Below are positions 572 to 32,615 of a stretch of 38,942 bases of DNA, in pieces (the stretch's first letter is position 1; the number at the start of each line of letters is the position of its first letter). The notes beneath the pieces are model-generated. The model made no database searches. It was not told the DNA's origin and saw only the letters and a list, made by a program, of their open reading frames with translations. This stretch comes from Candidatus Sulfotelmatobacter sp. GTDB taxonomy: Bacteria; Methylomirabilota; Methylomirabilia; Methylomirabilales; DASPOZ01. The DNA is taken from assembly GCA_035625755.1 (NCBI GenBank), contig DASPOZ010000101.1, positions 1 to 38,942 of the forward strand, given 5' to 3'. Made by a program: the position numbers and the translations under genes.

Positions 572-753
572 GATGCTGAGGAACCTGTTTTGACCCAGGC
601 TGCTCAAAAGGTCCAGATGCAAGGCGGCGCGTGATGCGAGGCGCGAGGCGTACTGGGTGCGTACGTCGCAGCGCCGCGCGAGCGCGCCAACGCCCCACCC
701 ACTGCCGCCGGGGCAGGGGGGAGAGACGTTGGGCCTTTTTCAGCAGCCTGTTA
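572..753 (+). repeat. Palindromic MITE/REP-like repeat, copy 1 (long form)
   Basis: Diverged outer left arm (GATGCTGAGGAACC). Inner left arm CCCAGGCTGCTCAAAAGGTCCAGATGCAAGGCGGCGCG. Central palindrome GCGAGGCGTAC..GTACGTCGC..GCGCGAGCGCGCCAACGCC. Extra hairpin CTGCCGCCGGGGCAG. Right arm GGGCCTTTTTCAGCAGCCTG followed by TTA. Confidence 0.85.
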
Positions 754-875
754 ATGGTTCCCGGCGCCCTCCGGGCGCACCGCGCTGGGGGGGGCGGGGC
801 ACGCTTGAAATCGCCGGAGTGGGAAGTTATCATGCCTGGTCGTTTGGCCCAATCGCGTGCGGAGGGGAGACGCGG

Positions 876-1847
876 ATGATCGAGGTCCAGAATCTTACCA
901 AGTCCTACGGGCCCGTGACGGCCATCGAGGACGTCAGCTTCACGGTGGGCCGGGGGGAGATCGTGGGCTTCCTTGGGCCCAACGGGGCCGGCAAGACCAC
1001 CACCATGCGCATCCTCACGGGATACATGCCGCCCACCACCGGCACGGCGCAGGTGGCCGGGTTCGACGTGCTGGCCCAATCCCTGGAGGCCCGGCGCCGG
1101 ATCGGATACCTGCCGGAGAGCGTGCCCCTCTATGGGGAGTTCCGCGTGCGGACCTACCTGGATTTCGTGGCGGAGGCGAAGGGCGTGCCCTCACGGGACC
1201 GCCGTGCCCGCGTGGACGAGGCCATGGAACGCTGCGCCGTCACCGACGTGGCCGGAAAGCTGGTGAGCACCCTCTCCCGCGGCTACCGGCAGCGGGTCGG
1301 CCTGGCGCAGGCCCTGGTGAACGATCCCGAGGTCCTCATCCTGGACGAGCCCACCGTGGGGCTGGACCCGCAGCAGATCGTGGAGATCCGCCGGCTCATC
1401 AAGGGGCTGGCCGGGCGGCGCACCATCATCCTCTCCACCCACATCCTGCCCGAGGTCAGCATGACCTGCGATCGGGTCATCATCATCAGCCGGGGGCGGA
1501 TCGTGGCCGTGGACACCCCCGGGAACCTCACGGCCCAGGTGCAGAAGTCGGCCAACGTGCTGCTGCAGGTGGAAGGGCCGCCGGACCGGGTCATGGCCGA
1601 GATCCGCCGGCTGGAGGGGGTGCAGCGGGTGGCCCCGCGGGGCGATGCGGTGGACGGGCGCCGGACCTACCTGGTGGAATCGGAGCGGGGGCGGGACGTG
1701 CGTGTGGCCCTGGCGGCCGCCATGGTGAAGAACGGCTGGGGCCTCTACGAGCTCCGCCCCGCGGACCTGTCCCTGGAAGAGATCTTCCTCCACCTGGTCA
1801 CCGACGAGGCGGCGGCCCACCAGCCCGGCCGGGCGGCGGAGGCCTAG
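876..1847 (+). CDS. ABC transporter ATP-binding protein (ABC-2 / GldA-like)
   Basis: ATG 876 with GGAGGGGA at 861-868. Walker A GPNGAGKTT, signature LSRGYRQRV, Walker B LILDEP. The tracked ORF start at 657 runs through repeat copy 1 and is rejected. Confidence 0.9.
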   Translation: MIEVQNLTKSYGPVTAIEDVSFTVGRGEIVGFLGPNGAGKTTTMRILTGYMPPTTGTAQVAGFDVLAQSLEARRRIGYLPESVPLYGEFRVRTYLDFVAEAKGVPSRDRRARVDEAMERCAVTDVAGKLVSTLSRGYRQRVGLAQALVNDPEVLILDEPTVGLDPQQIVEIRRLIKGLAGRRTIILSTHILPEVSMTCDRVIIISRGRIVAVDTPGNLTAQVQKSANVLLQVEGPPDRVMAEIRRLEGVQRVAPRGDAVDGRRTYLVESERGRDVRVALAAAMVKNGWGLYELRPADLSLEEIFLHLVTDEAAAHQPGRAAEA

Positions 1848-1849
1848 CC

Positions 1850-2620
1850 GTGGCACACATCCTGGCCATCTTCAAGAAAGAGATCCGAGCCTACTTCGTC
1901 TCTCCCGTGGCCTACGGGGTCCTCACCATCTTCGCCCTGGTGGCCGGGTATTACTTCTGGATCGTCGTGGGCGTGTACCAGCGGGCCGGCTTCCAGAGCA
2001 TGATGAACCCCCAGATCGCCCAGGGTCTGAATCCCTCCGACTGGGTGTTCCGTCCCCTCTTCAGCTTCCTCTCCGTCATCGTCCTTTTCCTCATGCCGGC
2101 CATCACGGCGCGGCTTTTCGCGGAGGAGAAGCGGCAGGGGACGGCCGAGCTCCTCTTCACCTATCCCATCCGGGACGTGGAGCTCCTCCTGGGCAAGTTC
2201 TTCGCGGCCACGGCCCTGGCCCTGGCCATGCTGGGCCTCACGCTGGCCTACCCGCTCCTCCTGGGCCTCTTCGTGCCCATCGAGTGGGGACCCACCCTCA
2301 CGGGGTACCTGGGCATGGCCCTGATGATGATGGCCTTCCTGGCGGTGGGCACCCTGATCTCGTCCCTCACCGAACACCAGCTCATCGCCTTCACCGTCAG
2401 CTTCGGGGCCGCCCTGCTCCTCTGGCTCATCGGCTGGGCGGCGGACGGCGCGGGCCCCACGGGCCGGGCGGTCCTGAAGCACCTCTCGCTGCTGGAGCAT
2501 CGCGAGAGCTTCGCCAAGGGCGTGCTGGAGACCAAGGACATCATCTTCTTCCTGAACTTCACCTTCTTCTTCCTTTTCCTCACGCTCCGTTCTCTCGAAT
2601 CCAAGCGCTGGCGGGGCTAG
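1850..2620 (+). CDS. ABC-2 type transporter permease (GldF-like)
   Basis: GTG 1850 lies 2 nt after the ATPase stop. Multi-pass hydrophobic protein (VAHILAIFKKEIRAYFVSPVAYG...). The upstream 857-1849 part of the tracked ORF is an out-of-gene shadow frame. Confidence 0.8.
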   Translation: MAHILAIFKKEIRAYFVSPVAYGVLTIFALVAGYYFWIVVGVYQRAGFQSMMNPQIAQGLNPSDWVFRPLFSFLSVIVLFLMPAITARLFAEEKRQGTAELLFTYPIRDVELLLGKFFAATALALAMLGLTLAYPLLLGLFVPIEWGPTLTGYLGMALMMMAFLAVGTLISSLTEHQLIAFTVSFGAALLLWLIGWAADGAGPTGRAVLKHLSLLEHRESFAKGVLETKDIIFFLNFTFFFLFLTLRSLESKRWRG

Positions 2621-2645
2621 CCCCGGGGTGCCGGGGGGAGTGCGC

Positions 2646-4373: not shown

Positions 4374-5728
4374 GCTTCCGCACCACCGGCATCCTGGCGG
4401 TCCTCCTGGCGGTCCTGTTGGGCGCCTACTACTTCGCCGAGGTCCGCGGCGGCAGGAAGGACGCGGACGAGGCCGGGCGCCTCTTCACGGCCAAGCCGGA
4501 GGACGTGGAGGCCCTGGAGCTCCATGCCGGCGGGGCCGACATCCGCCTGCAGCGCCAGGACGGGGGCTGGCGCATCGAACAGCCGGTCCAGGCCAGGGGC
4601 GACGGCGCGGCTATCGGGGCCCTGGCCGCCAGCCTGCTGGGCGCCCGCGCCGAACGCACCCTGGAAGAGCTGCCCAAGAGCCTGGCCGACTACGGGCTGG
4701 ACAACCCGGAGCTGGTCGTGCGCTTCCGCGCGCGGGGCGATTCCCAGTGGCGGCGCCTGGAGTTCGGCGGCAAGAACCCCACCGGCGCCTGGGCCTACGC
4801 GCGGGTGGACGAGAAGCCGCAGGTGATCCTGGTGCCCGACACGCTGCGGGGCGAACTGCGCAAGACCGCCCTGGACCTGCGCGATAAGTCCGTAATGGAC
4901 GTGGAGGCGGAGAGGGTCACGCGCCTGGTGGTGCGGCGGGGGGCGCAGGAGCCGCTGGAGCTGAGGCGGGGGGCCCAATGGGAGATCGCGGGGCCGGTGA
5001 AGGTCCGGGCGGACGAGTGGCGCGTCTCCGGGCTGGTGCGCCGGCTGGCCACCGCCAAGGCCAAGGCCTTCGCCGCGGAGCCTGCCGCGGACCTGAAGCC
5101 CTACGGCCTGGACCGGCCGGCGGTGCGCCTGGAGCTGTGGGAGAAGGACGCGGCGTCCCCCAAGGTGCTGGCCCTGGCCGAACCCAAGGATAAGCCGAAT
5201 CTCCTTTACGGCCGCAACGAGGCCACCATGACCGTCGTGGAGCTGGACAAGGCCCTTATGACGGACGTGCCCAAGGACGCCTGGGAGATCCGAGACAAGA
5301 GCCTGTTCCGCTACGCCACCAGGGACGTGAAAAGGCTCCGCCTGGCCTGGGGGGGCACGGCGGTGGCCGTGGAACGCGAGGGGGAGGCGAAGTGGAAGGT
5401 CGCCGAGCCCGCGGCGGGCGCGGCCGACGAATCCCGGGTGAGGGACCTGCTCTTCAAGCTCACCGTCCTCCGGGCCGACGGCGTGGCCGCCGAGCAGGCG
5501 GGGACGCTGGACCGCTACGGGCTGGACCGGCCGGAGCTCACCATCACCGTCACCGGGGCGGACGGCAAGGCCCTGGGCACCCTGCTGGTGGGCAAGCAGG
5601 AGCGGGACGAGCGATACGTGCAGATCCAGGGGGAGCCGGCCGTGTACACGGTTCCCTCCAAGGACTTGCAGGACCTCCCCCGGGCGCCGGATGATTTCCG
5701 CGAGAAGAAACCCGAGAAGAAGGCATAG
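4370..5728 (+). CDS. DUF4340-like protein (N-terminal TM anchor, repeated beta-rich modules)
   Basis: GTG 4370 overlaps the upstream stop (GTGA). VSFRTTGILAVLLAVLLGAYYF anchor. Internally repeated ...YGLD.P...V modules. Usual partner of gldG-like genes. Confidence 0.65.
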   Translation: MSFRTTGILAVLLAVLLGAYYFAEVRGGRKDADEAGRLFTAKPEDVEALELHAGGADIRLQRQDGGWRIEQPVQARGDGAAIGALAASLLGARAERTLEELPKSLADYGLDNPELVVRFRARGDSQWRRLEFGGKNPTGAWAYARVDEKPQVILVPDTLRGELRKTALDLRDKSVMDVEAERVTRLVVRRGAQEPLELRRGAQWEIAGPVKVRADEWRVSGLVRRLATAKAKAFAAEPAADLKPYGLDRPAVRLELWEKDAASPKVLALAEPKDKPNLLYGRNEATMTVVELDKALMTDVPKDAWEIRDKSLFRYATRDVKRLRLAWGGTAVAVEREGEAKWKVAEPAAGAADESRVRDLLFKLTVLRADGVAAEQAGTLDRYGLDRPELTITVTGADGKALGTLLVGKQERDERYVQIQGEPAVYTVPSKDLQDLPRAPDDFREKKPEKKA

Positions 5729-5773
5729 CGCTCCGCTGTTCAAATGCTATCCGCTCAGGCTGTCAGCCGGGCC

Positions 5774-5821
5774 AAATCCCCCCATTCCCCCCTTTGCCAA
5801 AGGGGGGCGGAGGGGGGATTT
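5774..5821 (+). terminator. Long G/C-tract hairpin (AAATCCCCCC..CCCCCCTTT-GCC-AAAGGGGGG..GGGGGGATTT) downstream of the DUF4340 gene
   Basis: Outer 10-bp and inner 9-bp stems read directly from the sequence, followed by only a short TTT. Possible terminator or REP-type hairpin. Confidence 0.4.
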
Positions 5822-5876
5822 GAACAGTATTGGCGCTGAGGCCAGGCCGGCCGCGCGGCCGGCCCATGGGGCGTCC

Positions 5877-7157
5877 ATGCAGCCGACGAAGCGGTTCCAT
5901 TACGCCTGGATCGTCATCGGGGTCACCTTCTTCGCCCTCATGGCGGGTATGGGGGTCCGGTCCAACTTCGGCGTCTACATCAAGCCGCTGGAGGCCGAGT
6001 TTCACACCACCCGCGAGCCCATCTCCCGGATCAATTTCCTCAGCTTGCTCCTCTTCGCCCTCGTGCAGCCGGTCATCGGGATGGTCCTGGATCGTTATGG
6101 GCCCCGCGTCGTCCTGGCGGGCAGTATGCTTCTGGCCGGGCTGGGGACCGTCGGGCTGGCCTACGCCCCCAGCCTCTTCTGGGTCGGCGTGCTCTACGCC
6201 ATCGTCGGCGGGATCGCCTCCGGGGGCGCGGCGGTGACGGCGGGAACCTCGGTGGCCACGCGCTGGTTCGTGAAATCCCGCGGGCTGGCCATCGGCATCG
6301 CGGGGGCGGGCAGTTCCACCGGGCAGCTCATCTTCTTCCCCCTAGCCACCTGGCTGCTCCTGAAGACCGACTGGCGATTCAGCTACCTCCTCCAGGGGAT
6401 CCTGATGGCCGCCGTGGCGTTCCCGTTGGTGGCCTGGCTGGCCCGCAGCGACCCGCGGGACCTGGGGATCGCGCCCTACGGCGCCGACGAGGTGCCGGTG
6501 GGGTCGGCCGGTACCGTCGCACCGCTCGGCGCGGCGAGAGAGCGCCGCGTCGGCCTCGCGGAGGCCGCGCGCAGCCGGGACTTCTGGCTGCTGGCCATGG
6601 GTTTCTTCGTGTGCGGCTATACCAGCACGGGGCTCATCCAGTTCCACTTCATCCCGTACGCCATGGACCACGGGTTCCACGCCATGGAAGCGGCCAACGC
6701 CCTGGGCCTGATGGGCGCCCTCAACATCGTGGGCACCATGCTCTCGGGGCGGCTCTGCGACCGGGTGGGCAACCGGATCCCCCTCAGCGCCGTCTACTTC
6801 CTGCGGGCGCTGGCCATCCTCTTCCTGCTCCTGGTGCGGGACGGGGTGATGCTCACCGTGTGGGCCATGACCTTCGGCCTGACGTATATCGCCTCCGTGC
6901 CCCCCACCTCCGGCCTCACGGCGGATCTGTTCGGAAGGCTCTCGGTGGGAAAGCTCTTCGGCTGGATCTTCCTGAGCCACCAGGTGGGCGCCGCGCTGGG
7001 GTCCTGGATCGGCGGGTACCTGTACGACCGCACGGGAAACTACGTGGGGGCGTTCCTCTCCGCCGCGGCCCTGGCCTTCGTCGCCTCCGCCCTGAGCTAC
7101 GCCATCCGCGAGAGCCCGCGGGCCGTCCCGGTCCCCGCCGCGGCCGTGGGATCCTAA
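5877..7157 (+). CDS. MFS transporter
   Basis: ATG 5877 (MQPTKRFHYAWIVIGVTFF...). About 12 hydrophobic segments with a central loop. The ORF-track start at 5691 runs through the hairpin region and is rejected. Confidence 0.85.
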   Translation: MQPTKRFHYAWIVIGVTFFALMAGMGVRSNFGVYIKPLEAEFHTTREPISRINFLSLLLFALVQPVIGMVLDRYGPRVVLAGSMLLAGLGTVGLAYAPSLFWVGVLYAIVGGIASGGAAVTAGTSVATRWFVKSRGLAIGIAGAGSSTGQLIFFPLATWLLLKTDWRFSYLLQGILMAAVAFPLVAWLARSDPRDLGIAPYGADEVPVGSAGTVAPLGAARERRVGLAEAARSRDFWLLAMGFFVCGYTSTGLIQFHFIPYAMDHGFHAMEAANALGLMGALNIVGTMLSGRLCDRVGNRIPLSAVYFLRALAILFLLLVRDGVMLTVWAMTFGLTYIASVPPTSGLTADLFGRLSVGKLFGWIFLSHQVGAALGSWIGGYLYDRTGNYVGAFLSAAALAFVASALSYAIRESPRAVPVPAAAVGS

Positions 7158-7236
7158 CCGGCCGCCGAAAAGGGCCGATACCTTTCGCGGCTGCCTCGGC
7201 GACACCGAGTGGGCCGTTGGCGCGCTCGATCCCCAG

Positions 7237-7278
7237 AAAAAAATCACGGCCCGGCAGCGAGATGCACTGCCGGGCCGT
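7237..7278 (-). terminator. Rho-independent terminator (minus strand)
   Basis: Minus strand reads ACGGCCCGGCAG-TGCATCTCG-CTGCCGGGCCGT, a perfect 12-bp stem, then GA and TTTTTTT. It lies 20 nt downstream of the 7298 stop. Confidence 0.85.
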
Positions 7279-7297
7279 TCGCTTTGCGAAGCCGGGC

Positions 7298-7495
7298 TCA
7301 GGTCTGGGGCGTTTCGGGGGGTTCGGCCGGGGGGAGGCCCTGATCCTCGGGTCGCACCGCCTCGATGGGCGGCCCCTTCTCCCCCGTGGCGGTCCGGGCC
7401 TGGCGCCGTGCGCGCTTCTCCTCCTGGCGCTTCTTGCGGGCTTCTTCTTTCCGGCGCTTATCCCCTCGGTAGGCCTGTCGAGATCGCCCGGGCAT
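7298..7495 (-). CDS. Small Lys/Arg-rich basic protein (65 aa), function unknown
   Basis: ATG 7495 preceded by GGAGGGGAGC and followed by a strong terminator. No family recognised. Confidence 0.5.
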   Translation of the reverse strand: MPGRSRQAYRGDKRRKEEARKKRQEEKRARRQARTATGEKGPPIEAVRPEDQGLPPAEPPETPQT

Positions 7496-7566
7496 GCTCC
7501 CCTCCGGATCCGGCCCCCCCTAGGACCGTAACTTCAGCGGAATCGTGCGAGCCCGCCTCCGGCGGA

Positions 7567-8874: not shown

Positions 8875-10125
8875 TCAACGGGCGGCGGCCAGGACGCCGG
8901 CGGCGGCCAGCGCGCCGTCGAACGACTTGAGGGTGGGCTTGATCTGCAGGGGGGCCGGCAGCGCATCCACCACGGCCTCCTGGGTCTTCAGCCCGTGCCC
9001 CGTGATGCACACGACGAGGCTCTCGTCCCGGGGGATGCGCCCCTGCGCGATGAGGCGCATGGCCGCGGCCAGCGTCACCCCGCCGGCCGTCTCGGCGTAG
9101 ATCCCCTCGGTGGCGGCCAGCAGCTTCATGGCCTCCACGATCTCGGCGTCACTGGCGTGCTCGCCCCAGCCTCCGCTGTCCTTCACCACCTTGTAGGCGT
9201 AGTAGCCGTCGGCCGGGTTGCCGATGGCCAGCGACTTGGCGATGGTCCGGGGCCGCACGGGCCGGATGGTCTCCGAGCCTTCCTTGACCGAATTCACGAT
9301 GGGGCCGCACCCCTCCGCCTGGGCGACGTACATCCGGGTGGGCACGTCCGCGATCAGTTCCAGGGTGCGGAGCTCCTGCAGCCCCTTCCAGATCTTGGTG
9401 ATCAGCGACCCGCCGGCGGCGGGCACCACGATATGCTGCGGGGCGCGCCAGCCGAGCTGCTCGGCGATCTCGTAGCCGAAGGTCTTGGACCCCTCGGCGT
9501 AGTAGGGGCGGATGTTGATGTTCACGAAGGCCCAGCCGTACTTGTCCGCCACCTCGCTGCAGAGCCGATTCACCTCGTCGTAGTTGCCTTCCACCGCCAC
9601 CACGGAAGGGTTGTAGATGGACGTCCCCAGTACCTTGCCCTGCTCCAGGTCCGCCGGGATGAAGACGAAGCTCTTTATCCCGGCCTCGGCGGCGTGGGCC
9701 GCCACGGAGTTCGCCAGGTTGCCGGTGGAGGCGCAGGCCACCACCTGAAATCCCATCTCCAGGGCCCGGGTCACCGCCACGGCCACCACGCGGTCCTTGA
9801 AGGAGAGGGTCGGATGATTGACCGTGTCGTTCTTGAGGTAGAGTTCCCGCACGCCCAGGGCACGGGCCAGGTTTCGGGCCCGGATCAGGGGGGTGAAGCC
9901 GCATGCCCGGCCCACCGCCGCCTCGCCCTCGATGGGCAGCAGGGGGCGATAGCGCCAGATGCTGGGTGGCCCCGCCTCGACGGATCGGCGCGAGACCAGG
10001 CGCCGCAGGGCCTCGTAATCGTAGGCCACCTCCAGCGGCCCGAAGCAGAACTCGCAGACGTGGAGCGCTTTGGCCGGGTACGGCCGCCCACACTCGCGGC
10101 ACTTCAACCCCTTGATCGTTCCCAT
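8875..10125 (-). CDS. Threonine-synthase-family PLP enzyme (ThrC-like; predicted homocysteine-forming MetM-like role)
   Basis: N-terminal zinc ribbon CRECG...CEFC. PLP-lysine motif TLSFKDR. ATG 10125 (alternative ATG 10143). Lies in the SAM-riboswitch operon. Confidence 0.85.
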
Positions 10126-10187
10126 CCTGGATCCTACTCCCATCCCGCGGCCCCCGGCGAGGGGGGCCAGCGGCCTCGCCCCGGGGA

Positions 10188-10482: not shown

Positions 10483-10500
10483 GCATTGACCCTTATCTTG

Positions 10501-10632
10501 CCTCATCTCTCATCCCGCCGGTACAGCACTACGAAGCGGGATGTAGGAGTTGGCACCGGACCCCCGCCATGCTGGGCGGGGCGGTTGCCGTGGCGTCGTC
10601 GGGCCAGTCCCTCAGCCACTCTGGATGAGTTT
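10501..10632 (-). promoter_or_regulatory. SAM-I (S-box) riboswitch aptamer
   Basis: Minus strand reads CTCATCCAGAGTGGCTGAGGGACTGGCCCGACGACGCCACGGCAACC...GGTGCCAACTCC...GGGATGAGAGATGAG. The P1 strands and the conserved GAGGGA / GGCCC / GCAACC / GGTGCCAA blocks are all present. Confidence 0.9.
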
Positions 10633-13006: not shown

Positions 13007-13054
13007 CCTGCCCTCCCGTTCCCTGTCCCTGGGTCCGATCCGTCGAGCACCTCA

Positions 13055-13183
13055 CAGGGCATTGAAGAACTCTCGCATACCCGGGCTGCTCAAAAAGGTG
13101 CAGATGCAAGGCGCCGCGCGGATTCCGCAATCCGCATTCCGCATTCCGCAATGGAGAGGTGGGCCCTTTCCAGCAGCCTGCTA
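13055..13183 (+). repeat. Palindromic repeat, copy 2 (variant core)
   Basis: The arms are conserved (CCCGGGCTGCTCAAAAAGGTGCAGATGCAAGG ... GGGCCCTTTCCAGCAGCCTG-CTA). The GC-palindromic core is replaced by ATTCCGC-type short tandem repeats at 13121-13150. Confidence 0.8.
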
Positions 13184-14995
13184 CGACGCGCATTCCCCGG
13201 GGCCGGTGTGCACGCCGAAGGCCTCGGTGCCGCCCCAGTCGAGGTAGGCATCCGGCGCCTGGGCGTGCGCCGGGAGCTCGGTCAGATCCCTGACCGCCTC
13301 CCGGATCCTGGCCAATCCGAGGCGATCCACGAACGCCTCGAACGTTTCCCCGCCCCGCCGCTCCGCCCGGTAGAGGTCCAGCAGGCGGCCCACTAGGGCC
13401 GGGGCGTTCTTCGCCGGTACCTTCAGCGCGGGGCGCGCGTACCGCGTCCCCTCCAGACTGAGGGATGCGCCCAGGAAGACCTGGTAGGTCGGCACCTGCT
13501 TCCCGTCGAACACCTTCGACCCGCCGGAGAAGCCGATGCCGGCGATGTGATGGTGGCCGCAGGAGTTCGGGCAGCCCGAGATCTTGATCCGGATCCCCGC
13601 CTCGTCGGCCACATAGGCGTGGCCGTTCCGGCAAATGTCGCCGATGGCCGCCGCCAGGCCGCGCGACGAGGTGATCCCGAGCTGGCAGGTATCGGCGCCG
13701 GGGCAGGCGGTGACGTCCGCCAGGCGGTCGGCCGAGGGCGCGGCCAGGCCCGCCCCCTTGAGCAGGCGATACACCGGCGGCAGCTTGGCGCCGGGGATCC
13801 AGCGCAGGAGGATGTTCTGCTGGTTCGTCGTCCGGAGCCACCCGTCACCGAACTGGCGGGCGAGGAAGGCAAGGACCCGGAGTTGCGGGCCCGTCACGTC
13901 GCCCAGAACCAGGCGCGCGTTGACCATGAAATAGCCCCGCTGCTTCTGCGGCCGCACGTTCGTGGCCCACCATCGACCGGATTCGGGGTCGCCGTTCGGC
14001 ACGGCGGCCAGGTCCGCCGGCGACGGAGCGCGCCGCGACGCCTCCGGCGGGACATCGATGGACGGGATCCTCCCGGCCAGCACCCCGCGCAGGCCTTCGC
14101 GCTCCCCCAGGACGAGGGCGCGGAACGCCTCCATCCCGAGCTTCCGGACGACGAACTTCAGGCGGGCCAGATTGCGGTTGTCCCGATTGCCGAGCCGATC
14201 GAACACGCGCACGATGGCCGCGATGGTGACCAGCAAGTCCTCGGCCGGCGTGAAGTCCTCCAGGGGCTGCGCCACCTGGGGCGATGGGCCGAGACCGCCG
14301 CCGACATAGAGGCGGAACCCCCGCAGCCCTTCCGCGCCTTGGTGGCGCAGCGCCGCCACCGCGCCGATATCCTGGATGGGCGCGAGCCCGCAGAGGTCCC
14401 GGCACCCCGAGAAGCTGATCTTGAATTTCCGGGGCAGGTTCTGGTTCATCGGATTGCGCAGGAGGAAGCGGGCCGTGGCCTCCGCGTAGGGCGTAACGTC
14501 GAAGGGCTCGTCGGGCGCCACGCCGGCGTGGGGGCAGGCCACCACGTTGCGGACGGTGTTCCCGCAGGCCTCGCGCGTGGTGAGGCCCACCTCGGCCAGG
14601 CGCGTGAGCGTCGGCGTCAGTTCCTCCGGCTTCACGAAGTGGAACTGGATGTTCTGGCGCGTCGTGACGTGGCCCACCCCCCGCGGCGCCGCCTCGGCCA
14701 GCTCGGCCAGGCGCTCGACCTGCTTCGCCGTGAGGCCGCCCCAGGGGATCTTCACCCGCACCATGTGCACCCCCTCCTGCCGCTGGCCATAGACGCCATG
14801 CTGCAGGCGGAAGCGCTTGAACTCGTCCGGCGTGATCTCGCCGCGCCAGAAGCGATGAACGAACCGGTCGAAGGTATCGATCTCGCCGGCGTCCGCCCAG
14901 GATTCCGGCTCGTGCACGGCCTGCCCGGGGAGTTCCTCGGCGTCCGGGATGTGAAGGTGGGGTCGCCTCGTCTCGGTCGTCACCTCGTCGTTCAT
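13181..14995 (-). CDS. sir: Ferredoxin-dependent sulfite reductase (siroheme/[4Fe-4S] hemoprotein)
   Basis: ATG 14995 with GGAGGG upstream. Duplicated nitrite/sulfite-reductase half-domains. Cys cluster TACPGADTC ... SGCPNSCGHH. Confidence 0.9.
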   Translation of the reverse strand: MNDEVTTETRRPHLHIPDAEELPGQAVHEPESWADAGEIDTFDRFVHRFWRGEITPDEFKRFRLQHGVYGQRQEGVHMVRVKIPWGGLTAKQVERLAELAEAAPRGVGHVTTRQNIQFHFVKPEELTPTLTRLAEVGLTTREACGNTVRNVVACPHAGVAPDEPFDVTPYAEATARFLLRNPMNQNLPRKFKISFSGCRDLCGLAPIQDIGAVAALRHQGAEGLRGFRLYVGGGLGPSPQVAQPLEDFTPAEDLLVTIAAIVRVFDRLGNRDNRNLARLKFVVRKLGMEAFRALVLGEREGLRGVLAGRIPSIDVPPEASRRAPSPADLAAVPNGDPESGRWWATNVRPQKQRGYFMVNARLVLGDVTGPQLRVLAFLARQFGDGWLRTTNQQNILLRWIPGAKLPPVYRLLKGAGLAAPSADRLADVTACPGADTCQLGITSSRGLAAAIGDICRNGHAYVADEAGIRIKISGCPNSCGHHHIAGIGFSGGSKVFDGKQVPTYQVFLGASLSLEGTRYARPALKVPAKNAPALVGRLLDLYRAERRGGETFEAFVDRLGLARIREAVRDLTELPAHAQAPDAYLDWGGTEAFGVHTGPGECAS

Positions 14996-15582: not shown

Positions 15583-15596
15583 GACACCTCGCTCAA

Positions 15597-15751
15597 CAGG
15601 CTGCTGAAAAACCTTCTCTTGCCCAGGCTGCTCAAAAAGGTCCAGATGCAAGGCGGCGCGCGATGCGCCGAGTGAGGCGTACTTCTGGTACGCCGCAGCG
15701 AATGCGCGAGCGCGCCAACGCCGCAGATGGGCCTTTTTCAGCAGCCTGCTA
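15597..15751 (+). repeat. Palindromic repeat, copy 3 (short form)
   Basis: CAGGCTGCTGAAAAACC-TTCTCTTGCC-CAGGCTGCTCAAAAAGGTCCAGATGCAAGGCGGCGCGCGATGCG...GCGCGAGCGCGCCAACGCCGCAGATGGGCCTTTTTCAGCAGCCTG-CTA. Confidence 0.9.
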
Positions 15752-16597
15752 CGGCTTTTCCACGGGCACGCCCACCAGGCTCCCGTACTCGGTCCAGGAT
15801 CCGTCGTAGTTGCGGACCCTGGGATAGCCCAGGAGCTCCTTCAGGGCGAACCATGTGAGCGAGGAGCGCTCACCGATCCGGCAGTAGGCCACCACCTCCT
15901 TGTCGGGCGTGACCCCCTTGCCCGCGTAGAGGCTCTTGAGCTCGTCCGCCGACTTGAAGGTGCCGTCGGGGCGGCAGTTCTCGCCCCAGGGGATGTTCGC
16001 CGCGCCGGGCACGTGGCCGCCCCGCTGCGCCCCCTCCTGGGGCAGGTTCTCGGGGGCCAGCAATTCGCCGCTGAACTCGCGGGGCGAGCGCACATCCACC
16101 AAGGCGCGGTTCCGCCTGAAGGCCGTCTCCACCACCAGGTCCCGGGCGGCGCGGACGGAAGGATCGGGGTCCTTGGCGCTGTAGCGCACGGGGGCGATCT
16201 TGGTGGCCTCCTTGGTCAGCGCGCGGCCCTCGTCGATCCATTTCTTCCGGCCGCCGTTCATGATCTGCGCGTCGGAGTGGCCGTAATGCTTCAGCAGCCA
16301 GTAGGCGTACGTGGCGAACCAGTTATTGTTATCCCCGTAGAGGATGACCTTGGTATTGGTGCCCACCCCCGCCTGGCCCAGGAGCTGCTCGATCTTGGCC
16401 TTGCTGGCGATATCGCGCACGGGGTGCTCCTCCAGGTCCCGGAACCAGTTCAAGGCTACCGCCCCGGGGATGTGGCCCTGCTCGAAGGCGGCGGTATCCA
16501 CGGAGACCTCGATGACGCGAAGGTTCGGGTCCTTCAGATGGTCCGCCACCCATGCCGTCTCCACGAGCACCTGAGGGTTCGCGTACGCCGTCGCCAT
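15749..16597 (-). CDS. Thiosulfate/3-mercaptopyruvate sulfurtransferase (tandem rhodanese)
   Basis: ATG 16597 with AAGGGAGGGGG upstream. Two rhodanese domains. Active-site loop CRIGERSS. Confidence 0.9.
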   Translation of the reverse strand: MATAYANPQVLVETAWVADHLKDPNLRVIEVSVDTAAFEQGHIPGAVALNWFRDLEEHPVRDIASKAKIEQLLGQAGVGTNTKVILYGDNNNWFATYAYWLLKHYGHSDAQIMNGGRKKWIDEGRALTKEATKIAPVRYSAKDPDPSVRAARDLVVETAFRRNRALVDVRSPREFSGELLAPENLPQEGAQRGGHVPGAANIPWGENCRPDGTFKSADELKSLYAGKGVTPDKEVVAYCRIGERSSLTWFALKELLGYPRVRNYDGSWTEYGSLVGVPVEKP

Positions 16598-20482: not shown

Positions 20483-20508
20483 GCTGCGCCCCGCCCCGCC
20501 CGGCAGCT

Positions 20509-20661
20509 TAGCAGGCTGCTGAAAAAGGCCCATCTGCGGCGTTGGCGCGCTCGCGCGGCGCTGCGACGTACGGACCAAGTACGCCTCGCGCCTCGCCGCG
20601 CGCGCCGCCTTGCATCTGGACCTTTTTAAGCAGCCTGCGCAAAATGTTCGGCATCCTGTTA
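20509..20661 (-). repeat. Palindromic repeat, copy 4 (short form, reverse orientation)
   Basis: TAGCAGGCTGCTGAAAAAGGCCCATCTGCGGCGTTGGCGCGCTCGCGC...GCCTTGCATCTGGACCTTTTTAAGCAGCCTG...CATCCTG-TTA. Sits between the Rrf2 stop and the cysK start. Confidence 0.9.
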
Positions 20662-21108
20662 GATCTGGTAGGTCACCCGCCCCGCCCCCTGCTTCGCGCG
20701 AAGGCGCTGGCTGATGTCTTCCAGCGTGGTGGTGTCCACCACCTTGCCCACGGCGTCCCGCACTTCGGCCCAGAGGTCCTGCAGGGCGCAGAAGCCCTCC
20801 TTGGGGCAGAGCTCCCGCTGGCCATCCGTCACACAGAAGATGGGCGCGACGGGACCGTCCACCGCGCGGAGCACCTCCCCAATGGTGATCTCGTGGGGCG
20901 GCTTCGCCAGGTAGTAGCCGCCGTTGACGCCGCGCCTGCTTCGCAGGAAGCCGGCTCGTTTGAGCATGAGGAGGACCTGCTCGAGGTAACGCACCGGGAG
21001 CCCCTGGCGCCGGGCGATCCCCTCGATCTGGACGGGGCCCTGGTCATAATGCATCGCCAGGTCCTGAAGGGCTCGGGTTGCGTAATCAGCCTTTGTTGAC
21101 ACAAGCAT
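20659..21108 (-). CDS. Rrf2-family transcriptional regulator (IscR/CymR-like, three-Cys cluster site)
   Basis: [14 protein letters not shown] wHTH N-terminus. C-x7-C-x5-C in [17 protein letters not shown]. The SD sequence is weak. Confidence 0.85.
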
Positions 21109-25343: not shown

Positions 25344-25427
25344 CGTTCGACGGTGCGACGGCTCGCTCGCCCGCCGTGTCCCACCGAACGGTCGTACGAT
25401 CGTACGTTCGTACCGTCGAACGTTTTT
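25344..25427 (+). promoter_or_regulatory. Structured purH-purD intergenic element (11-bp stem + T5, internal 14-nt palindrome)
   Basis: CGTTCGACGGT (25344-54) pairs with ACCGTCGAACG (25412-22), followed by TTTTT. CGTACGATCGTACG at 25393-25406 is a perfect palindrome. Confidence 0.5.
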
Positions 25428-25439
25428 CAGGGAGCGTGC

Positions 25440-26720: not shown

Positions 26721-27253
26721 CGAGGAAACCGCAGGTGGGGATCGTGATGGGGTCCGACTCGGACCTGGAGGTGATGCGGGAGGCAGCCGTGGCGCTGGAG
26801 GGATTCGGCATCCCCCACGAGGTGCGCGTCTGCTCGGCGCACCGCTCGCCCCGGCTCGCGTTGCGCTACGCGCGGGATGCGGAGGCGCGCGGCCTCAAGG
26901 TCCTCATCGCCGGCGCCGGGTGGGCGGCCCACCTGGCGGGCGTCCTGGCGGCCGCCACCACGCTGCCCGTGATCGGGGTGCCCATCGAGTCCAGCCCGCT
27001 GCGGGGCCTGGACGCCCTGCTCTCCACGGCGCAGATGCCGGGCGGGGTCCCGGTGGCCACCATGTCCCTGGGGCGGGCGGGGGCGCGCAACGCGGGCGTC
27101 CTGGCGGCCCAGATCCTGGCCACGGCCGATGGGGATCTGCGGGCCCGGCTCCGCGCCTATAAGGCCCGCCTCGCCGCCGAGGTCGCCGCCCGGGACCGGC
27201 GGGTGCGCGCCGGTGTGTCCCCCCGCCGCGGGCGAGCCCGCGCGAAGGCCTAG
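26717..27253 (+). CDS. purE: N5-carboxyaminoimidazole ribonucleotide mutase
   Basis: ATGA overlap with the purD stop. VGIVMGSDSD and AGWAAHLAGV. The stop TAG at 27251-53 is the first triplet of repeat copy 5. Confidence 0.9.
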   Translation: MTRKPQVGIVMGSDSDLEVMREAAVALEGFGIPHEVRVCSAHRSPRLALRYARDAEARGLKVLIAGAGWAAHLAGVLAAATTLPVIGVPIESSPLRGLDALLSTAQMPGGVPVATMSLGRAGARNAGVLAAQILATADGDLRARLRAYKARLAAEVAARDRRVRAGVSPRRGRARAKA

Positions 27254-27441
27254 CAGGTTGGTCGAAAACACGCTCTTGCCCAGGCTGCTCAAAACGGCCC
27301 AGGTGCAGGGCGGCGCGCGATGCGCCGACTGAGGCGTACGTCGGTTACGTCCCGGGGAGTGCGCGAGCGCGCCAACGCCGCACCCGCTGCCGCCCTGACG
27401 GCAGAGGGAAGAGATGCCGGGGCATTTTCAGCAGCCTGCTA
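27251..27441 (+). repeat. Palindromic repeat, copy 5 (long form)
   Basis: TAG-CAGGTTGGTCGAAAACAC-GCTCTTGCC-CAGGCTGCTCAAAACGGCCCAGGTGCAGGGCGGCGCGCGATGCG...GCGCGAGCGCGCCAACGCC...CTGCCGCCCTGACGGCAG...GGGGCATTTTCAGCAGCCTG-CTA. Confidence 0.9.
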
Positions 27442-27451
27442 GCGGCCGGGC

Positions 27452-29077
27452 GTGATCCCCTACCGCATCATGACCCTCGGCCTGGTGGGGGCCATCACCC
27501 TCTTCCGCCTCTGGTTCCTCACCACCGGCGCCTGGGAACTGAGCCCCGAGGAGGCCCAGTACTGGGACTGGTCGCGCCACCTGGACTGGAGCTACTACAG
27601 CAAGGGCCCCGGCATCGCGTACCTCATCGCCCTGGCCACGCGGCTCGGGGGGGATTCGGTGCTGGCCATCCGCCTGCCCGCCCTCCTGGCGGGCGCCCTG
27701 CTCGCCCTCCTGGCCTCCCGCCTGGCCAGGGAAACCACCGGGAGCGACCGAGCCGCCTTCTGGTCCGTGGTCCTCCTCACGGCCATGCCGCTGTACGGCG
27801 CGGGGGGCCTGCTGATGACCACGGATGCGCCCCTGCTGGTCTGCTGGGCCGCCGCCGTGTACGCGGTCTGGCGGGCGGCCGCCGGGGCGCCCGGCAGCGC
27901 CTGGTGGCACGCCGCCGGCGCCGCCCTCGCGGCGGGCCTCCTCATCAAGTACACGATCCTCCTTCTGGCGGGGTGTCTCGCCGGGTTCCTCTTCACGCAC
28001 CCCCGGCGCCACGTCCTCCTGCGCGGACGCGGCCCGTGGATCGTGGCGGCGTGGGGCGTGCTCGGCGCGGCCCCCATCCTGTACTGGAACTGGCGGCACG
28101 ACTGGGTGTCCTTCCGGCACGTGGTGGGCCAGGCCACGGGCGGCGCCGCCCTCTGGTGGCAGACCTTGGGGGAGTACCTGGGCGTGCAGGCGGCCGTGGT
28201 CTCGCCCCTGCTCTTCGCCGCCCTGGTGGCCGGCATCGCCTCCGCGGGCGGGCGGGGCCTGCGTGAGCGCCAGCCCGCCGCGCTCCTCCTGTTCTGGACG
28301 TCGGGCCCCGTGCTGCTCTTCTTCTTGTTCTGGAGCCTGGGGGCCAAGATCCAGGGGAACTGGCCCGCGCCCGCCTACCTCACGGCCGCGGTCGCCGCTG
28401 CGGCGTGGGCCGCGGAGCGGCTGCAAGAGCGGCAGCGGCGGGCCGGGCGCCGGCAAAAGGCCTTGCTGCTCTTCGGCGCGGCCTCTATAATCCTCGGCAT
28501 CGCCGTGCAGGCCGGCGCCATGTGGCCGCGGCCGGTGCATGCGCTGGGCGCATCCCTCAGCCGTCTGGGCCAACGGGCGGGCCCCGGCGCGGCCGGCCGG
28601 CTCCTGCGCCGCGGCGGGCAGCTCCTGGCCGAAGGGCTGGATCCCTGCAAGCGGCTCTGCGGGTGGCGCCAGTTGGCCGCCCGTGTGAGCGCCACGCAGG
28701 CGGCCATCCCGGGCGGGCCCCCGCAGGGCACCCGCGAGGCCGCTCCGCCCTTCATCGTCAGCGACCGGTACCAACTCGCCAGCCTCCTGGCGTTCTACGT
28801 GGAGGGACAGCCCCGGACCTACACGGCGGACCTGGGCGGCCGCTTCAGCCAGTACGACATCTGGGGCGGCCTGGACGGGCAGCGCGGCCGGAACGGGATC
28901 TTCGTGACCTACGGGTACCAACCGCTCCCGCACGAGGTGGAGCGCGCCTTCCGGCGCGTGGAGCTGGAACCCCGGGTGGTAGTGATGGATGACGGCCGGC
29001 TCCTGCACGGTTTCTTCATCGTGCGCGGGTACGATTTCCTGGGCTTCCCGCCCCCCCCCGCGCCGCCGCGCTACTGA
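27452..29077 (+). CDS. GT39-family (ArnT/PMT-like) membrane glycosyltransferase
   Basis: Multi-TM N-terminal half (YYSKGPGIAYLIA, TTDAPLL) and soluble C-terminal domain. GTG 27452, or ATG 27470 as an alternative. Confidence 0.75.
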   Translation: MIPYRIMTLGLVGAITLFRLWFLTTGAWELSPEEAQYWDWSRHLDWSYYSKGPGIAYLIALATRLGGDSVLAIRLPALLAGALLALLASRLARETTGSDRAAFWSVVLLTAMPLYGAGGLLMTTDAPLLVCWAAAVYAVWRAAAGAPGSAWWHAAGAALAAGLLIKYTILLLAGCLAGFLFTHPRRHVLLRGRGPWIVAAWGVLGAAPILYWNWRHDWVSFRHVVGQATGGAALWWQTLGEYLGVQAAVVSPLLFAALVAGIASAGGRGLRERQPAALLLFWTSGPVLLFFLFWSLGAKIQGNWPAPAYLTAAVAAAAWAAERLQERQRRAGRRQKALLLFGAASIILGIAVQAGAMWPRPVHALGASLSRLGQRAGPGAAGRLLRRGGQLLAEGLDPCKRLCGWRQLAARVSATQAAIPGGPPQGTREAAPPFIVSDRYQLASLLAFYVEGQPRTYTADLGGRFSQYDIWGGLDGQRGRNGIFVTYGYQPLPHEVERAFRRVELEPRVVVMDDGRLLHGFFIVRGYDFLGFPPPPAPPRY

Positions 29078-29080
29078 GGG

Positions 29081-29236
29081 ATTTTCGATTGTCGATTTTC
29101 GATTGCCGATTGTGGATGGGGACAGCGCACCGATGCTGGAACCGGTATCGGACAGTGGCGACTGCCGCTACGCCCGCGTCACCCGAAAACACGTCGGCCA
29201 GATCGACAATCGAAAATCGTCGATCGGCAATCGGCA
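29081..29236. repeat. Intergenic block flanked by oppositely oriented arrays of TTTTCGATTG / CCGATTG motifs
   Basis: TTTTCGATTG at 29082-91 and 29096-105, and CCGATTG at 29106-12. The reverse complements CAATCGAAAA (29207-16) and CAATCGG (within 29224-35) lie just before the GT2 ATG. Confidence 0.7.
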
Positions 29237-30205
29237 ATGAGTGAGGCGCTTCCGCTTTCGGTGGTCATCCCCGTCTTCAACGAAGAGGAGACGGTGCCCC
29301 ACCTCTATGGCGAGGTGCGGGCGGCCCTGGACAAGCTGGGCACCCCCTACGAGGTCCTGGTGGTGGATGATGGCTCCACCGATGGGAGCCTGCCCCGGCT
29401 GCTGGCCTGCACCAAGGAGGACCCGCGCTGGCGGGTGATCGCCCTGCGGCGCAACTTCGGCCAGACGGCGGCCCTGGCCGCCGGCTTCGATTACGCGCAG
29501 GGCGACGTGATCGTGACCCTGGACGGCGACCTCCAGAACGACCCGGAGGACATCGGCAAGCTCCTGGCCCAGGCCAAGGACCACGATGTGGTCAGCGGGT
29601 GGCGCCATCCCCGGCACGACCCCTTCCTCTCCCGGCGGCTCCCCTCGCTGCTGGCCAACGGACTGATCTCGAAGGTGACGGGCGTCCGCCTGCACGACTA
29701 CGGCTGCACCCTGAAGGCCTACCGGCGCGAGGTGATCCGCCACCTGCGCCTCTACGGCGAGATGCATCGCTTCATCCCGGCCATCGCCAGCTGGATGGGC
29801 ATCTCCCTCGCCGAGGTGCAGACCAACCACCGCCCTCGGCGCTTCGGGCGTTCCAAGTACGGCATCCTCAGGACGTTGCGCGTGTTCCTGGACCTCATCA
29901 CGGTGAAGTTCCTCCTCAGCTTCTGGACGAAGCCGATCCAGGTCTTCGGCCTCGCGGGCCTGGTGATGACCGGGGCCGGGGGCGCCATCACCGCCTACCT
30001 GGCCGTCCTCAAGCTGGCCGCCGGCGCCGAGATCGGGGGCCGGCCGCTCCTCCTGCTGGGGGTCCTCCTGCTGCTCTTGGGGGTGCACGCCATCGGGATG
30101 GGGCTCCTGGGGGAGATGCTGGCCCGCGTGTACCATGAATCGCAGGGCAAGCCCATCTACATGGTGAAGCACGTCCTGTGGAAGGGCGAGCCATCGGACC
30201 GGTAG
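29237..30205 (+). CDS. GT2-family polyprenyl-phosphate glycosyltransferase (ArnC/GtrB/DPM1-like)
   Basis: VVIPVFNEEETV, VVDDGSTDGS and LDGDLQND. Two C-terminal TM helices. Confidence 0.88.
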   Translation: MSEALPLSVVIPVFNEEETVPHLYGEVRAALDKLGTPYEVLVVDDGSTDGSLPRLLACTKEDPRWRVIALRRNFGQTAALAAGFDYAQGDVIVTLDGDLQNDPEDIGKLLAQAKDHDVVSGWRHPRHDPFLSRRLPSLLANGLISKVTGVRLHDYGCTLKAYRREVIRHLRLYGEMHRFIPAIASWMGISLAEVQTNHRPRRFGRSKYGILRTLRVFLDLITVKFLLSFWTKPIQVFGLAGLVMTGAGGAITAYLAVLKLAAGAEIGGRPLLLLGVLLLLLGVHAIGMGLLGEMLARVYHESQGKPIYMVKHVLWKGEPSDR

Positions 30206-31245: not shown

Positions 31246-31258
31246 ACCACCGAGACCC

Positions 31259-31416
31259 TAACAGGCCGCTGAGAAGGCCCATCTGCGGCGTTGGCGCGCT
31301 CGCGCGACGCTGCGACGTACGACCCCAGTACGCCTCGCGCCTCGCATCGCGCGCCGCCTTGCATTTGGACCTTTTTGAGCAGCCTGGGCCGAAACCAGTT
31401 TTTCAGTATCCTGCTA
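31259..31416 (-). repeat. Palindromic repeat, copy 6 (short form, reverse orientation)
   Basis: TAA-CAGGCCGCTGAGAAGGCCCATCTGCGGCGTTGGCGCGCTCGCGC...GCCTTGCATTTGGACCTTTTTGAGCAGCCTGGGCC..TTTTTCAGTATCCTG-CTA. Confidence 0.9.
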
Positions 31417-31666
31417 AGGACCTATCCCAAAACCCTTCAGTGACCCGTGACGGGGGCCAGCCCCGGCCCCGTCCTCGGCGCTCCGCGGGCCCATCATCTC
31501 CTGCTGGAGGGCCTTCCCCAGCAGGCTGGGGCCCCGGCGCAATCGGATGGGCACAACCGTCGCGCGCCCGCGCGCGGCGGGACGCGATGGGCTCACGCCT
31601 GCAGGCGGCACCAGGGCATGACCCCCTAAGCGCTCGGAGGTCGAGGTTTTGGGATAGGCCCTAAGG
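31414..31666. mobile_element. Candidate second MITE: 14-bp perfect terminal inverted repeats flanked by a CTAAGG direct repeat
   Basis: CTAAGG-A-CCTATCCCAAAACC (31421-34) ... GGTTTTGGGATAGG (31645-58)-CC-CTAAGG (31661-66). The ~210 bp interior is non-coding with internal hairpin CCTGCTGG..CCAGCAGG. Single copy in this window. Confidence 0.5.
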
Positions 31667-31722
31667 CCATCGGGGAAATCCGAATCGCACCGGGTGCCCG
31701 TCGTATCTGATGTGGATGGCGG

Positions 31723-32313
31723 ATGGCGGATCGTTTGATCGGGTGGGACCGGTGGCTCTTCGAGGCGGTGAATCACGGCCACCGGAACGCGGTGTTCGAT
31801 GCGGTCATGCCGGCGCTGGAGCGGAAGGCCACCCTCTTGCTCGCCGCGGTCCTGGCCGGCGCCGCCCTGTTGGTGTGGGGTGGGGCGAAGGGACGGTGGA
31901 CGGCCGCGACGGCGGTCCTGGCGATCCTGCTGGCGGATCAGGCGGCGGGTTGGGTGAAGTTCCTGGTGGCCCGGCCACGGCCCTGCCACGTGCTGCCCGC
32001 GGTGACCTTGCTCAACACCGGCTGCACGGGTTCGTACGCCTTCCCCTCCAACCACGCCACGAACCTCTTCGCGCTGGCGGTGGTGGTCGGGGGCCTGTAT
32101 CCGCGATGGGCCTGGGCTTTCGTGCCATTCGCGGCCGCCGTCTCCTACGCCCGCGTCTACGGCGGGGCTCATTACCCGGGTGACGTGCTGGGCGGCGCGG
32201 TCTTGGGAGCGGCGCTGGGCGCGCTGGCCCTGGCCGGCACGCAGGCGATCCGGCGCGCGCTGGGGCGGGCGCCTCGGGCGGGCGGCGCGACGTCCCCCAC
32301 CCGCGACCCCTGA
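31723..32313 (+). CDS. PAP2-family lipid phosphatase
   Basis: KFLVARPRP, PSNH and SYARVYGGAHYPGD (three PAP2 motifs). Several TM helices. Confidence 0.88.
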   Translation: MADRLIGWDRWLFEAVNHGHRNAVFDAVMPALERKATLLLAAVLAGAALLVWGGAKGRWTAATAVLAILLADQAAGWVKFLVARPRPCHVLPAVTLLNTGCTGSYAFPSNHATNLFALAVVVGGLYPRWAWAFVPFAAAVSYARVYGGAHYPGDVLGGAVLGAALGALALAGTQAIRRALGRAPRAGGATSPTRDP

Positions 32314-32326
32314 GGGCGCCCGCCGA

Positions 32327-32356
32327 TTGGACCCGCCGCCCCGAACGCAGTATAGT
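32327..32356 (+). promoter_or_regulatory. Possible promoter TTGGAC-18-TATAGT upstream of selD
   Basis: Read directly from the sequence. It would place repeat copy 7 inside the selD 5' UTR. Confidence 0.35.
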
Positions 32357-32433
32357 AGCGGTAGAATCACATCGCACGGCAGCAGCTTCGCCGACCACCG
32401 ACCCGCCGCACCGCGGGACTGCGCCCGGGCACC

Positions 32434-32615
32434 TGAGAGCCTGTGAAAAGATCCTTCAGGCTGCTGAAAAAGGCCCAGGTGCAAGGCGGCGCGCGATGCG
32501 AGGTGCGAGGCGTACTCGGTCCGTACGTCGCAGCGCCGCGCGAGCGCGCCAACGCCCCACCCGCTACCGCCGAGGCAGCGGGGAGGAACGGTGGGCCTTT
32601 TTCAGCAGCCTGTTA
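32434..32615 (+). repeat. Palindromic repeat, copy 7 (long form)
   Basis: TGA-GAGCCTGTGAAAAGATCC-TTCAGGCTGCTGAAAAAGGCCCAGGTGCAAGGCGGCGCGCGATGCGAGGTGCGAGGCGTAC..GTACGTCGCAGCGCCGCGCGAGCGCGCCAACGCC...GGGCCTTTTTCAGCAGCCTG-TTA. Confidence 0.9.

Follow-up and report, generated by a model that had tools for sequence, protein, structure and literature searches.

Short intergenic elements with duplicated YTAR flanks and the ends of an IS5-family clade in a Methylomirabilota contig

Between the genes of contig DASPOZ010000101.1 (assembly GCA_035625755.1, Candidatus Sulfotelmatobacter sp., Methylomirabilota) a short palindromic element recurs at high density, which raises the question whether it is mobile DNA or a structure that serves the host, for example as a terminator or a regulatory RNA. 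We analysed the whole stretch of 38,942 nt, in the following called the window. The elements are very probably non-autonomous DNA transposons (MITEs, for miniature inverted-repeat transposable elements) of the IS5-family lineage. Terminal inverted repeats, duplicated YTAR flanks, insertion polymorphism and ends identical to those of IS5-family insertion sequences (IS) speak for this reading, which agrees with the first half of the label "MITE/REP-like" given by the initial annotation of this DNA.

Copies, ends and flanks

Copies were sought by repeat detection, MAFFT alignment and an nhmmer profile built from related sequences. These methods revealed nine copies, seven clear and two degenerate (Table 1), which together cover 1,519 nt (3.9%) of the window. 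The elements are 130-196 nt long and have no coding capacity. The profile matches the seven clear copies with E-values from 1e-11 to 7e-47, and if up to two mismatches are allowed, the window contains 17 occurrences of the 14-nt arm motif compared to 0.16 expected from dinucleotide-preserving shuffles. All seven clear copies listed by the initial annotation were recovered independently by repeat detection, MAFFT and nhmmer, and the decayed copy that it had placed at about 312-512 is real. Its eight entries therefore stand, but the list was not complete, since a ninth, degenerate long-form copy at about 7154-7300 on the minus strand had been overlooked.

Genes in the window were called by the periodicity of GC content at third codon positions (GC3) and by Pfam. 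On this basis every copy is intergenic and no transposase is found among the window genes, both as claimed before. The earlier warning that the elements falsely extend open reading frames (ORFs) is likewise upheld.

Each element possesses three arms resembling terminal repeats, two of them on the left side. The outer-left arm is followed by a spacer of 8-12 nt, the inner-left arm, a GC-rich central palindrome and the right arm, and long forms carry an extra hairpin. This layout had been described correctly, including the hairpin of the long forms; only the TA(G/A) that had been counted as a part of the arm was not borne out, because it belongs to a 4-nt YTAR flank which is present at both ends. 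The element proper thus extends from CAGG to CCTG. Its terminal inverted repeats, CAGG(C/A)TGCTGAAAAA and TTTTTCAGCAGCCTG, are complementary at 14-15 of 15 positions in the consensus, which is 161 nt long with its flanks (cTAG CAGGATGCTGAAAAACCCGTTTTCGCC CAGGCTGCTCAAAAAGGTCCAGATGCAAGGCGGCGCGCG … GCGCGAGCGCGCCAACGCCGCAGATGGGCCTTTTTCAGCAGCCTG CTAg). There are several sub-families, distinguished by their apical modules, that are common to several species.

Identical NTAN 4-mers are found at both ends in 21 of the 25 copies with intact flanks, and 13 of the 25 are flanked by CTAG/CTAG. Twelve flank pairs are non-palindromic and informative: eight match directly, one is inverted and three are neither. 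The eight direct pairs consist of four CTAA…CTAA and four TTAG…TTAG, each at a different locus. Direct matching exceeds inverted matching (permutation p ~1e-5), and at both outer positions of the flank the base at one end co-varies directly with that at the other (Fisher test: position 1, p = 0.006; position 4, p = 0.002). This direct co-variation argues both against an extension of the inverted repeat and against a 2-bp duplication of TA. IS5 makes 4-bp duplications of the sequence 5'-YTAR-3' (PMC5009759), and the duplicated YTAR flanks indicate a target-site duplication of this kind. An automated pairing of terminal repeats across all loci, meant to provide more flanks, was discarded, as it mixed up inner and outer arms.

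Table 1. Copies of the element in the window. Coordinates of the seven clear copies include the 4-nt flanks.
Position	Strand	Copy	Adjacent gene end	Found by
314..509	-	degenerate long form, facing the following copy head-to-head		nhmmer 316-502, E = 4e-9, best on minus strand; long-form alignment
565..754	+	long form with extra CTGCCGCC..GGCAG hairpin; right flank TTAA		repeat detection, MAFFT, nhmmer
7154..7300	-	degenerate long form	right arm abuts CTAA 7154-7157; TAA therein: stop of MFS transporter gene (5691-7157)	inverted-repeat pairs and alignments; below nhmmer threshold
13051..13184	+	short variant, non-palindromic centre GGATTCCGCA(ATCCGCATTCCGCA)TTCCGCAATGGAG	CTA 13181-13183 (right flank): TAG stop of minus-strand sulfite reductase gene	MAFFT, nhmmer, flank analysis
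15593..15752	+	standard; outer-left arm from 15597, inner-left arm from ~15624, right arm to 15748	15749-15751 (flank): TAG stop of minus-strand rhodanese gene	nhmmer, flanks
20508..20662	-	standard; CTAA direct repeat at both ends	20659-20661 (flank): stop codon of Rrf2 regulator gene	nhmmer, flanks
27250..27442	+	long form; CTAG at both ends	TAG 27251-27253 (flank): purE stop codon	nhmmer, flanks
31258..31417	-	standard; TTAG direct repeat at both ends	13 nt past the stop of the LPG_synthase_TM gene	nhmmer, flanks
32433..32616	+	long form; outer-left arm decayed		direct-repeat detection, MAFFT, nhmmer

Stop codons, empty sites and distribution

In half of the full copies (22 of 44) the TAG or TAA of the flank is precisely the stop codon of a high-GC3 ORF that is free of internal stops. 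From the window the sulfite reductase, rhodanese, Rrf2 and purE genes contribute to this number, and the degenerate copy at 7154, which lies outside the count, contributes the gene of the MFS transporter when judged in the same way. The window has six times fewer YTAR sites than expected (35 observed, 214 expected), and the twelve non-coding YTAR sites outside the elements comprise six stop codons and six intergenic sites. Therefore no function has to be invoked for the coincidence with stop codons, because the availability of YTAR together with the loss of insertions in coding sequences explains it. Genes enter the elements more often via the right end than via the left (16 versus 6, p = 0.05). 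As a side observation, TAG accounts for 17 of the 39 provisional stop codons in the window, unusually many for a 70% GC genome, and five of the TAG/TAA stops in the window are element flanks.

The closest homologues of the sulfite reductase are 93% and 87% identical (loci L036 and L038, respectively), and the named relatives further down the list are Methylomirabilota/NC10. Comparing these loci yields the insertion polymorphism which the initial annotation had proposed to look for. The site at the rhodanese stop is empty in L038, where it reads CCG TAG GGGTGGGCC ATG, and filled in the window and in L036, both of which have the element immediately after the same rhodanese TAG. The sulfite reductase gene, too, has an element at its stop in the window and in L036, with the TAG stop as the element's flank; in L038 and L039 the gene ends in TGA and is not followed by an element. 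The two insertions common to the window and L036 are inherited, because each has a site-specific outer arm and spacer. Their centres are swapped: of the two sites, each genome has one with the short "GGATTCCGCA…" centre and one with the standard centre, a pattern suggestive of gene conversion from copy to copy. Half of the hairpin is gone from some orthologous copies, or a non-palindromic centre has taken the place of the palindromic one. Among the window copies, the outer-left arm shows 21 mismatches in 105 positions versus 11 in 210 in the inner-left and right arms (p = 1e-4), a contrast that fits conversion or repair within the hairpin or, alternatively, selection on the hairpin. The short variant (13095-13150 in the window, 1396-1463 in L036) additionally holds a small tandem array with the 7-nt unit GCGGAAT/ATTCCGC.

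A scan with the exact 22-nt core motif, using one genome per species, showed how far the family extends. Among the at least 35 loci listed, 31 are complete, near-identical elements of 161 nt in many metagenome-assembled genomes (MAGs) of Methylomirabilota/NC10. One further element among the matches listed belongs to a MAG labelled Coatesbacteria, and in the three remaining loci, which come from other taxa, the motif occurs by chance, twice within coding sequence. The locus from the MAG labelled Candidatus Coatesbacteria (L032) is a 3.3-kb contig with a complete long-form element of the NC10 type, and may be a mis-binned contig or a transfer outside the phylum. More than 50 copies are present in 321 kb of NC10 sequence. 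In the searchable papers we found no description of this family, of its terminal sequence, or of repeats from NC10, Methylomirabilis or Rokubacteria. The family is previously undescribed, although the kind of element, an ordinary MITE, is well known; noteworthy are its very high density, the regeneration of stop codons, the layout with three arms and the ends of a widespread IS5-family clade.

Insertion sequences with the same ends

An abundant clade of insertion sequences, 1.26-1.53 kb in length, has exactly the same 15-nt terminal repeat as the MITE. The terminus CAGGCTGTTGAAAAA (14 of 15 positions matching) bounds 1.5-kb elements on rhizobial plasmids which are annotated as IS5 family transposase, among them L062 and L063, the latter being flanked by CTAG on both sides. 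The transposase of L062, the one copy scanned with Pfam, consists of DUF772 (1e-22) and DDE_Tnp_1 (2e-13). Metagenomes were searched with a pattern of the exact terminus, a gap of 120-145 nt and the back-translated transposase motif HPLRAIR, which cannot match the MITE. At least 120 loci match this pattern; both ends were located in 80 of the loci listed, and there the elements measure 1.26-1.53 kb and are mostly CTAG-flanked. The right end of one of the insertion sequences (L075) matches the right arm of the MITE at 20 of 20 positions, and the left end of another (L078) matches the outer-left arm over 19 nt. For the L078-type and the L075-type, the two transposase clades searched, the precomputed Pfam domains are again DUF772 and DDE_Tnp_1. 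Judged by these matches, the MITE carries the ends of this IS5-family clade.

The same 15-nt terminus together with the YTAR flank recurs in unrelated contigs of 40-71% GC, where it bounds small elements of 117-168 nt. These make up at least five other MITE families in this size range with unrelated interiors and the same ends and flanks (L040, L048, L051, L053 and L057 from IMG/VR; L060). The element of L060 (2504-2664), located on a Paracoccus plasmid, is 165 nt long and its flank is the stop codon of a gluconokinase gene; L053 contains two inverted copies 6.9 kb apart. Many members of the IS clade also carry a small second ORF without a Pfam match. In members of about 1.5 kb (L062 3367-3711; L063 3384-3728; L130) it overlaps with and follows the transposase gene, encodes about 111-114 amino acids (114 in L062) and extends into the right terminal repeat. 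Some full-length copies of the clade (L062 2181-2204/3708-3731; L139; L153) have inserted right in the middle of perfect palindromes, which range from 16 to more than 40 nt and resemble hairpins or terminators or represent another repeat; the flanks of these copies fit a 2-bp duplication of TA, unlike those of the NC10 MITEs with their 4-bp signal.

From these data the following mechanism can be proposed. The ends CAGG(C/A)TGCTGAAAAA and TTTTTCAGCAGCCTG would be the binding and cleavage sites of a DDE transposase with DUF772 and DDE_Tnp_1 that is supplied in trans. Insertion would take place at the rare YTAR sites, at CTAG more often than at CTAA or TTAG, and the target would then be repeated on both sides. 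In a 70% GC genome TAG and TAA stops would belong to the few YTAR sites that tolerate an insertion, the duplication recreating the stop, and the elements would accumulate exactly at gene ends, including those between operon genes. After insertion the copies would decay, above all in the unpaired outer-left arm, lose segments and apparently exchange central modules with one another. The long inner hairpin would be a by-product of the palindromic structure, which may incidentally affect mRNA 3' ends. The data show the repeat family, its terminal inverted repeats, the duplicated YTAR flanks, the presence or absence of copies at orthologous sites, the terminal repeat held in common with IS5-family elements and the coincidence with stop codons; that a transposase acts in trans, which one does so in the Methylomirabilota, and any effect on RNA are inferred.

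Several observations weigh against an IS5-type origin with a 4-bp duplication. A tblastn search with four diverse transposases found no homologue in the 321 kb of NC10 sequence, and a search of the NC10 loci for solo terminal repeats or a parent IS found only a truncated MITE. The L078-type transposase clade carries actinobacterial and the L075-type alphaproteobacterial names, neither of them being NC10, and past about 20 nt the interior of the MITE matches none of the retrieved IS copies. The flanks of the full-length IS copies comprise 47 CTAG/CTAG pairs, the others being mixed (metagenome contigs), and those that are non-palindromic fit a TA duplication with G..C termini (13 pairs: CTAG/CTAA 7, TTAG/CTAG 4, TTAG/CTAA 2) more often than a 4-bp duplication (3-4 pairs). 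The IS copies of L139 and L062 also sit in their perfect palindromes in a way that fits a TA duplication. The duplication could not be read from the empty site in L038, which is a single one and whose intergenic sequence is too diverged. For a 1.3-kb IS that is present repeatedly, contigs from metagenomes may be chimeras in which the flanks of different copies have been joined, and for this reason the short MITEs count more in our judgement. Whether 4 bp or 2 bp within YTAR are duplicated is thus not fully settled.

Competing explanations, context and significance

The elements could instead be structures with a function for the host, i.e. bidirectional terminators, mRNA-stabilising hairpins or an attenuator with two pairings, which are kept by selection and whose transposon-like ends are incidental or ancestral. 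Their folding is in line with such a role. On the plus strand of the consensus, the inner-left arm pairs with the right arm in the minimum free energy structure (-90.8 kcal/mol), and with the inner arm blocked the outer-left arm takes its place (-79.6 kcal/mol); both pairings are energetically feasible, and the right arm can indeed pair with either left arm as the initial annotation had proposed. In the copy at 32433-32616 the inner-left arm is perfectly complementary to the right arm. The hairpins of single copies are very stable, ranging from -88 to -102 kcal/mol with z = -3.9 to -5.4 (-101.7 kcal/mol, z = -3.9 for copy 565-754; -87.6 kcal/mol, z = -5.4 for copy 15593-15752), and on both strands a long branched hairpin is followed by a U5 tract. 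However, the minus strand is about 13 kcal/mol weaker than the plus strand, because three consensus G·U pairs become A·C mismatches, and although the elements occur in both orientations relative to the upstream gene, the commoner entry via the right end (16 versus 6) places this less stable strand in the mRNA. A consensus terminator scan did not flag the elements. The location at gene 3' ends would suit a terminator, but the position at stop codons is explained by the availability of YTAR targets alone, and several copies lie inside apparent operons, where strong termination would be harmful. The sequence is highly similar across many species, with the inner-left and right arms far better conserved than the outer-left one, as expected for a selected hairpin; orthologous copies nevertheless lose half of the hairpin or take a non-palindromic centre. 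The covariation analysis and the Rfam comparison suggested by the initial annotation gave no support either. Over 41 copies the covariation term is 0.1 with scattered compensatory changes only, the family being too uniform for a signal, and with Rfam 15 no family matches the elements at the gathering threshold or at relaxed thresholds, where the best match has E = 9. Altogether we consider selection for a host function as the origin of the elements improbable.

Alternatively, the elements could be MITEs of the IS630/Tc1-mariner type (RUP-like) with termini RCAGG...CCTGY, which duplicate only the central TA of a CTAG-like target. CTAG with a duplicated TA is the classical IS630 target, and most non-palindromic flanks of the full-length IS, as well as the position of L139 and L062 at the central TA of perfect palindromes, are as expected for this type. 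However, L062 encodes DUF772 and DDE_Tnp_1, and elements of this composition are annotated as IS5 family and not as IS630; the two transposase clades searched have the same domains. Furthermore, a 2-bp model cannot yield the direct co-variation of the outer MITE flanks (8 versus 1, p ~1e-5), so that we regard this type as very improbable. Least probable, in our view to a degree close to exclusion, are palindromes of the REP/REPIN type mobilised by RAYT (Y1 HUH), or a family of structured non-coding RNA genes. The elements are intergenic, palindromic, GC-rich and present in high copy number, and the "REP-like" in their earlier label pointed in this direction. This part of the label does not hold, as the flanks are a duplicated YTAR target and REP/REPIN elements, to our knowledge, make no target duplication. 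The 15-nt terminal repeats of the DDE type also argue against it, as do the lack of a Y1 transposase among the window genes in the Pfam scan and the negative Rfam and covariation results. An IS630/TA hypothesis with which the analysis had started was dropped after the flank analysis and after IS5-type transposases had been found behind the same ends.

For the preferred reading, a MITE of the IS5-family lineage, a weak effect of the elements on mRNA 3' ends is possible, and any terminator or RNA role is hypothetical; the copies inside apparent operons argue against strong termination. A 2024 review of prokaryotic MITEs also treats effects on mRNA 3' ends as only conceivable (PMC10969869). Rather unlikely, but compatible with a mobile origin, would be a scenario in which a stop-regenerating IS5-type MITE seeded hairpins that have since been domesticated as REP-like, operon-internal partial terminators or stabilisers, the inner hairpin being kept phylum-wide by selection and/or gene conversion while the outer arm decays. 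If this were true, the Methylomirabilota would have a domesticated REP-like system of operon-internal RNA hairpins.

Comparison with known systems places the family as follows. Like REP/BIME/REPIN and ERIC elements of Proteobacteria, the elements are abundant intergenic imperfect palindromes which are conserved across related species and often lie in transcription units. REP/REPIN depend on RAYT transposases, whereas the window elements have terminal repeats of the DDE type and duplicated YTAR flanks. Correia elements of Neisseria and RUP of S. pneumoniae are hairpin-forming MITEs at gene boundaries which occur at high density and are able to alter transcription; for Correia elements, promoter, terminator and RNase III effects are documented. 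The window family resembles both in density, hairpin formation and position at gene boundaries. They are, however, TA-duplicating elements of other IS lineages, while the flanks of the window family are duplicated YTAR. The terminal sequence of the MITE (CAGGCTGCTGAAAAA) presumably differs from that of E. coli IS5 itself. With IS5 and its family the elements share the 5'-YTAR-3' target repeated at both ends (PMC5009759) and a 15-nt terminal repeat common to a clade that includes a member with DUF772 and DDE_Tnp_1 (L062); they differ in being only 130-190 nt long and encoding nothing. Prokaryotic MITEs such as Chunjie of Geobacter uraniireducens are short elements which are present in many copies, mostly between genes, and have conserved terminal repeats and direct repeats; their size is variable, many copies are truncated, and they can insert into operons without obvious destruction (PMC10969869). 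The window elements are likewise short, multi-copy and intergenic, with terminal and direct repeats, and are also found inside apparent operons. Chunjie differs from them in host phylum and sequence, and the three arms, two of them on the left, and the exact coincidence with stop codons in half of the copies are the window family's own.

The window has a GC content of about 70%. GC3 periodicity and Pfam outline a run of housekeeping genes: ABC and MFS transporters, a pyridoxal phosphate (PLP)-dependent enzyme controlled by an S-adenosylmethionine (SAM) riboswitch, a cysteine cluster for sulfur assimilation and sulfur carriers, purM/N/H/D/E and glycosyltransferases. Several copies stand between genes of apparent operons, namely rhodanese-ORF92-sulfite reductase-PF03601 gene and the purE region. 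No tRNA or tmRNA was found in the window. The SAM-I riboswitch (Rfam RF00162, 79 bits) is located at 10500-10631 on the minus strand, about 360 nt upstream of the gene for the 422-amino-acid PLP-dependent enzyme (8875-10143), which has an N-terminal NinF-like zinc ribbon; the same arrangement is found in the orthologous loci L036 and L038, with NIL-domain genes nearby. An AT-richer inverted repeat at 29080-29232, built from CGATTTTCGATTG-like units, has arms of 31 nt that are 84% complementary and separated by 91 nt. It lies directly upstream of a glycosyltransferase gene starting at 29237, has no relation to the MITE and may represent a regulatory region. A 32-nt inverted match with poly-G/poly-C (GCGCTGGGGGGGGCGGGGC…) connects 782-813 and 29032-29063, downstream of two different elements or genes.

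In annotation, the elements lengthen ORFs falsely and also provide genuine stop codons, and they break Methylomirabilota assemblies made from metagenomes. Nearly all that is known of this phylum, which is important in the cycling of methane and nitrogen, comes from MAGs; its gene calls would be cleaned up by a profile of the family, and insertion polymorphisms could be used as strain markers. The general understanding of MITEs is unchanged by this family. What it would show is how a transposon that targets YTAR is funnelled, in a GC-rich genome, onto TAG and TAA stops and regenerates them, and how a single 15-nt terminal repeat is linked to a very widespread IS5-family clade which would be the source of several unrelated MITE families across phyla.

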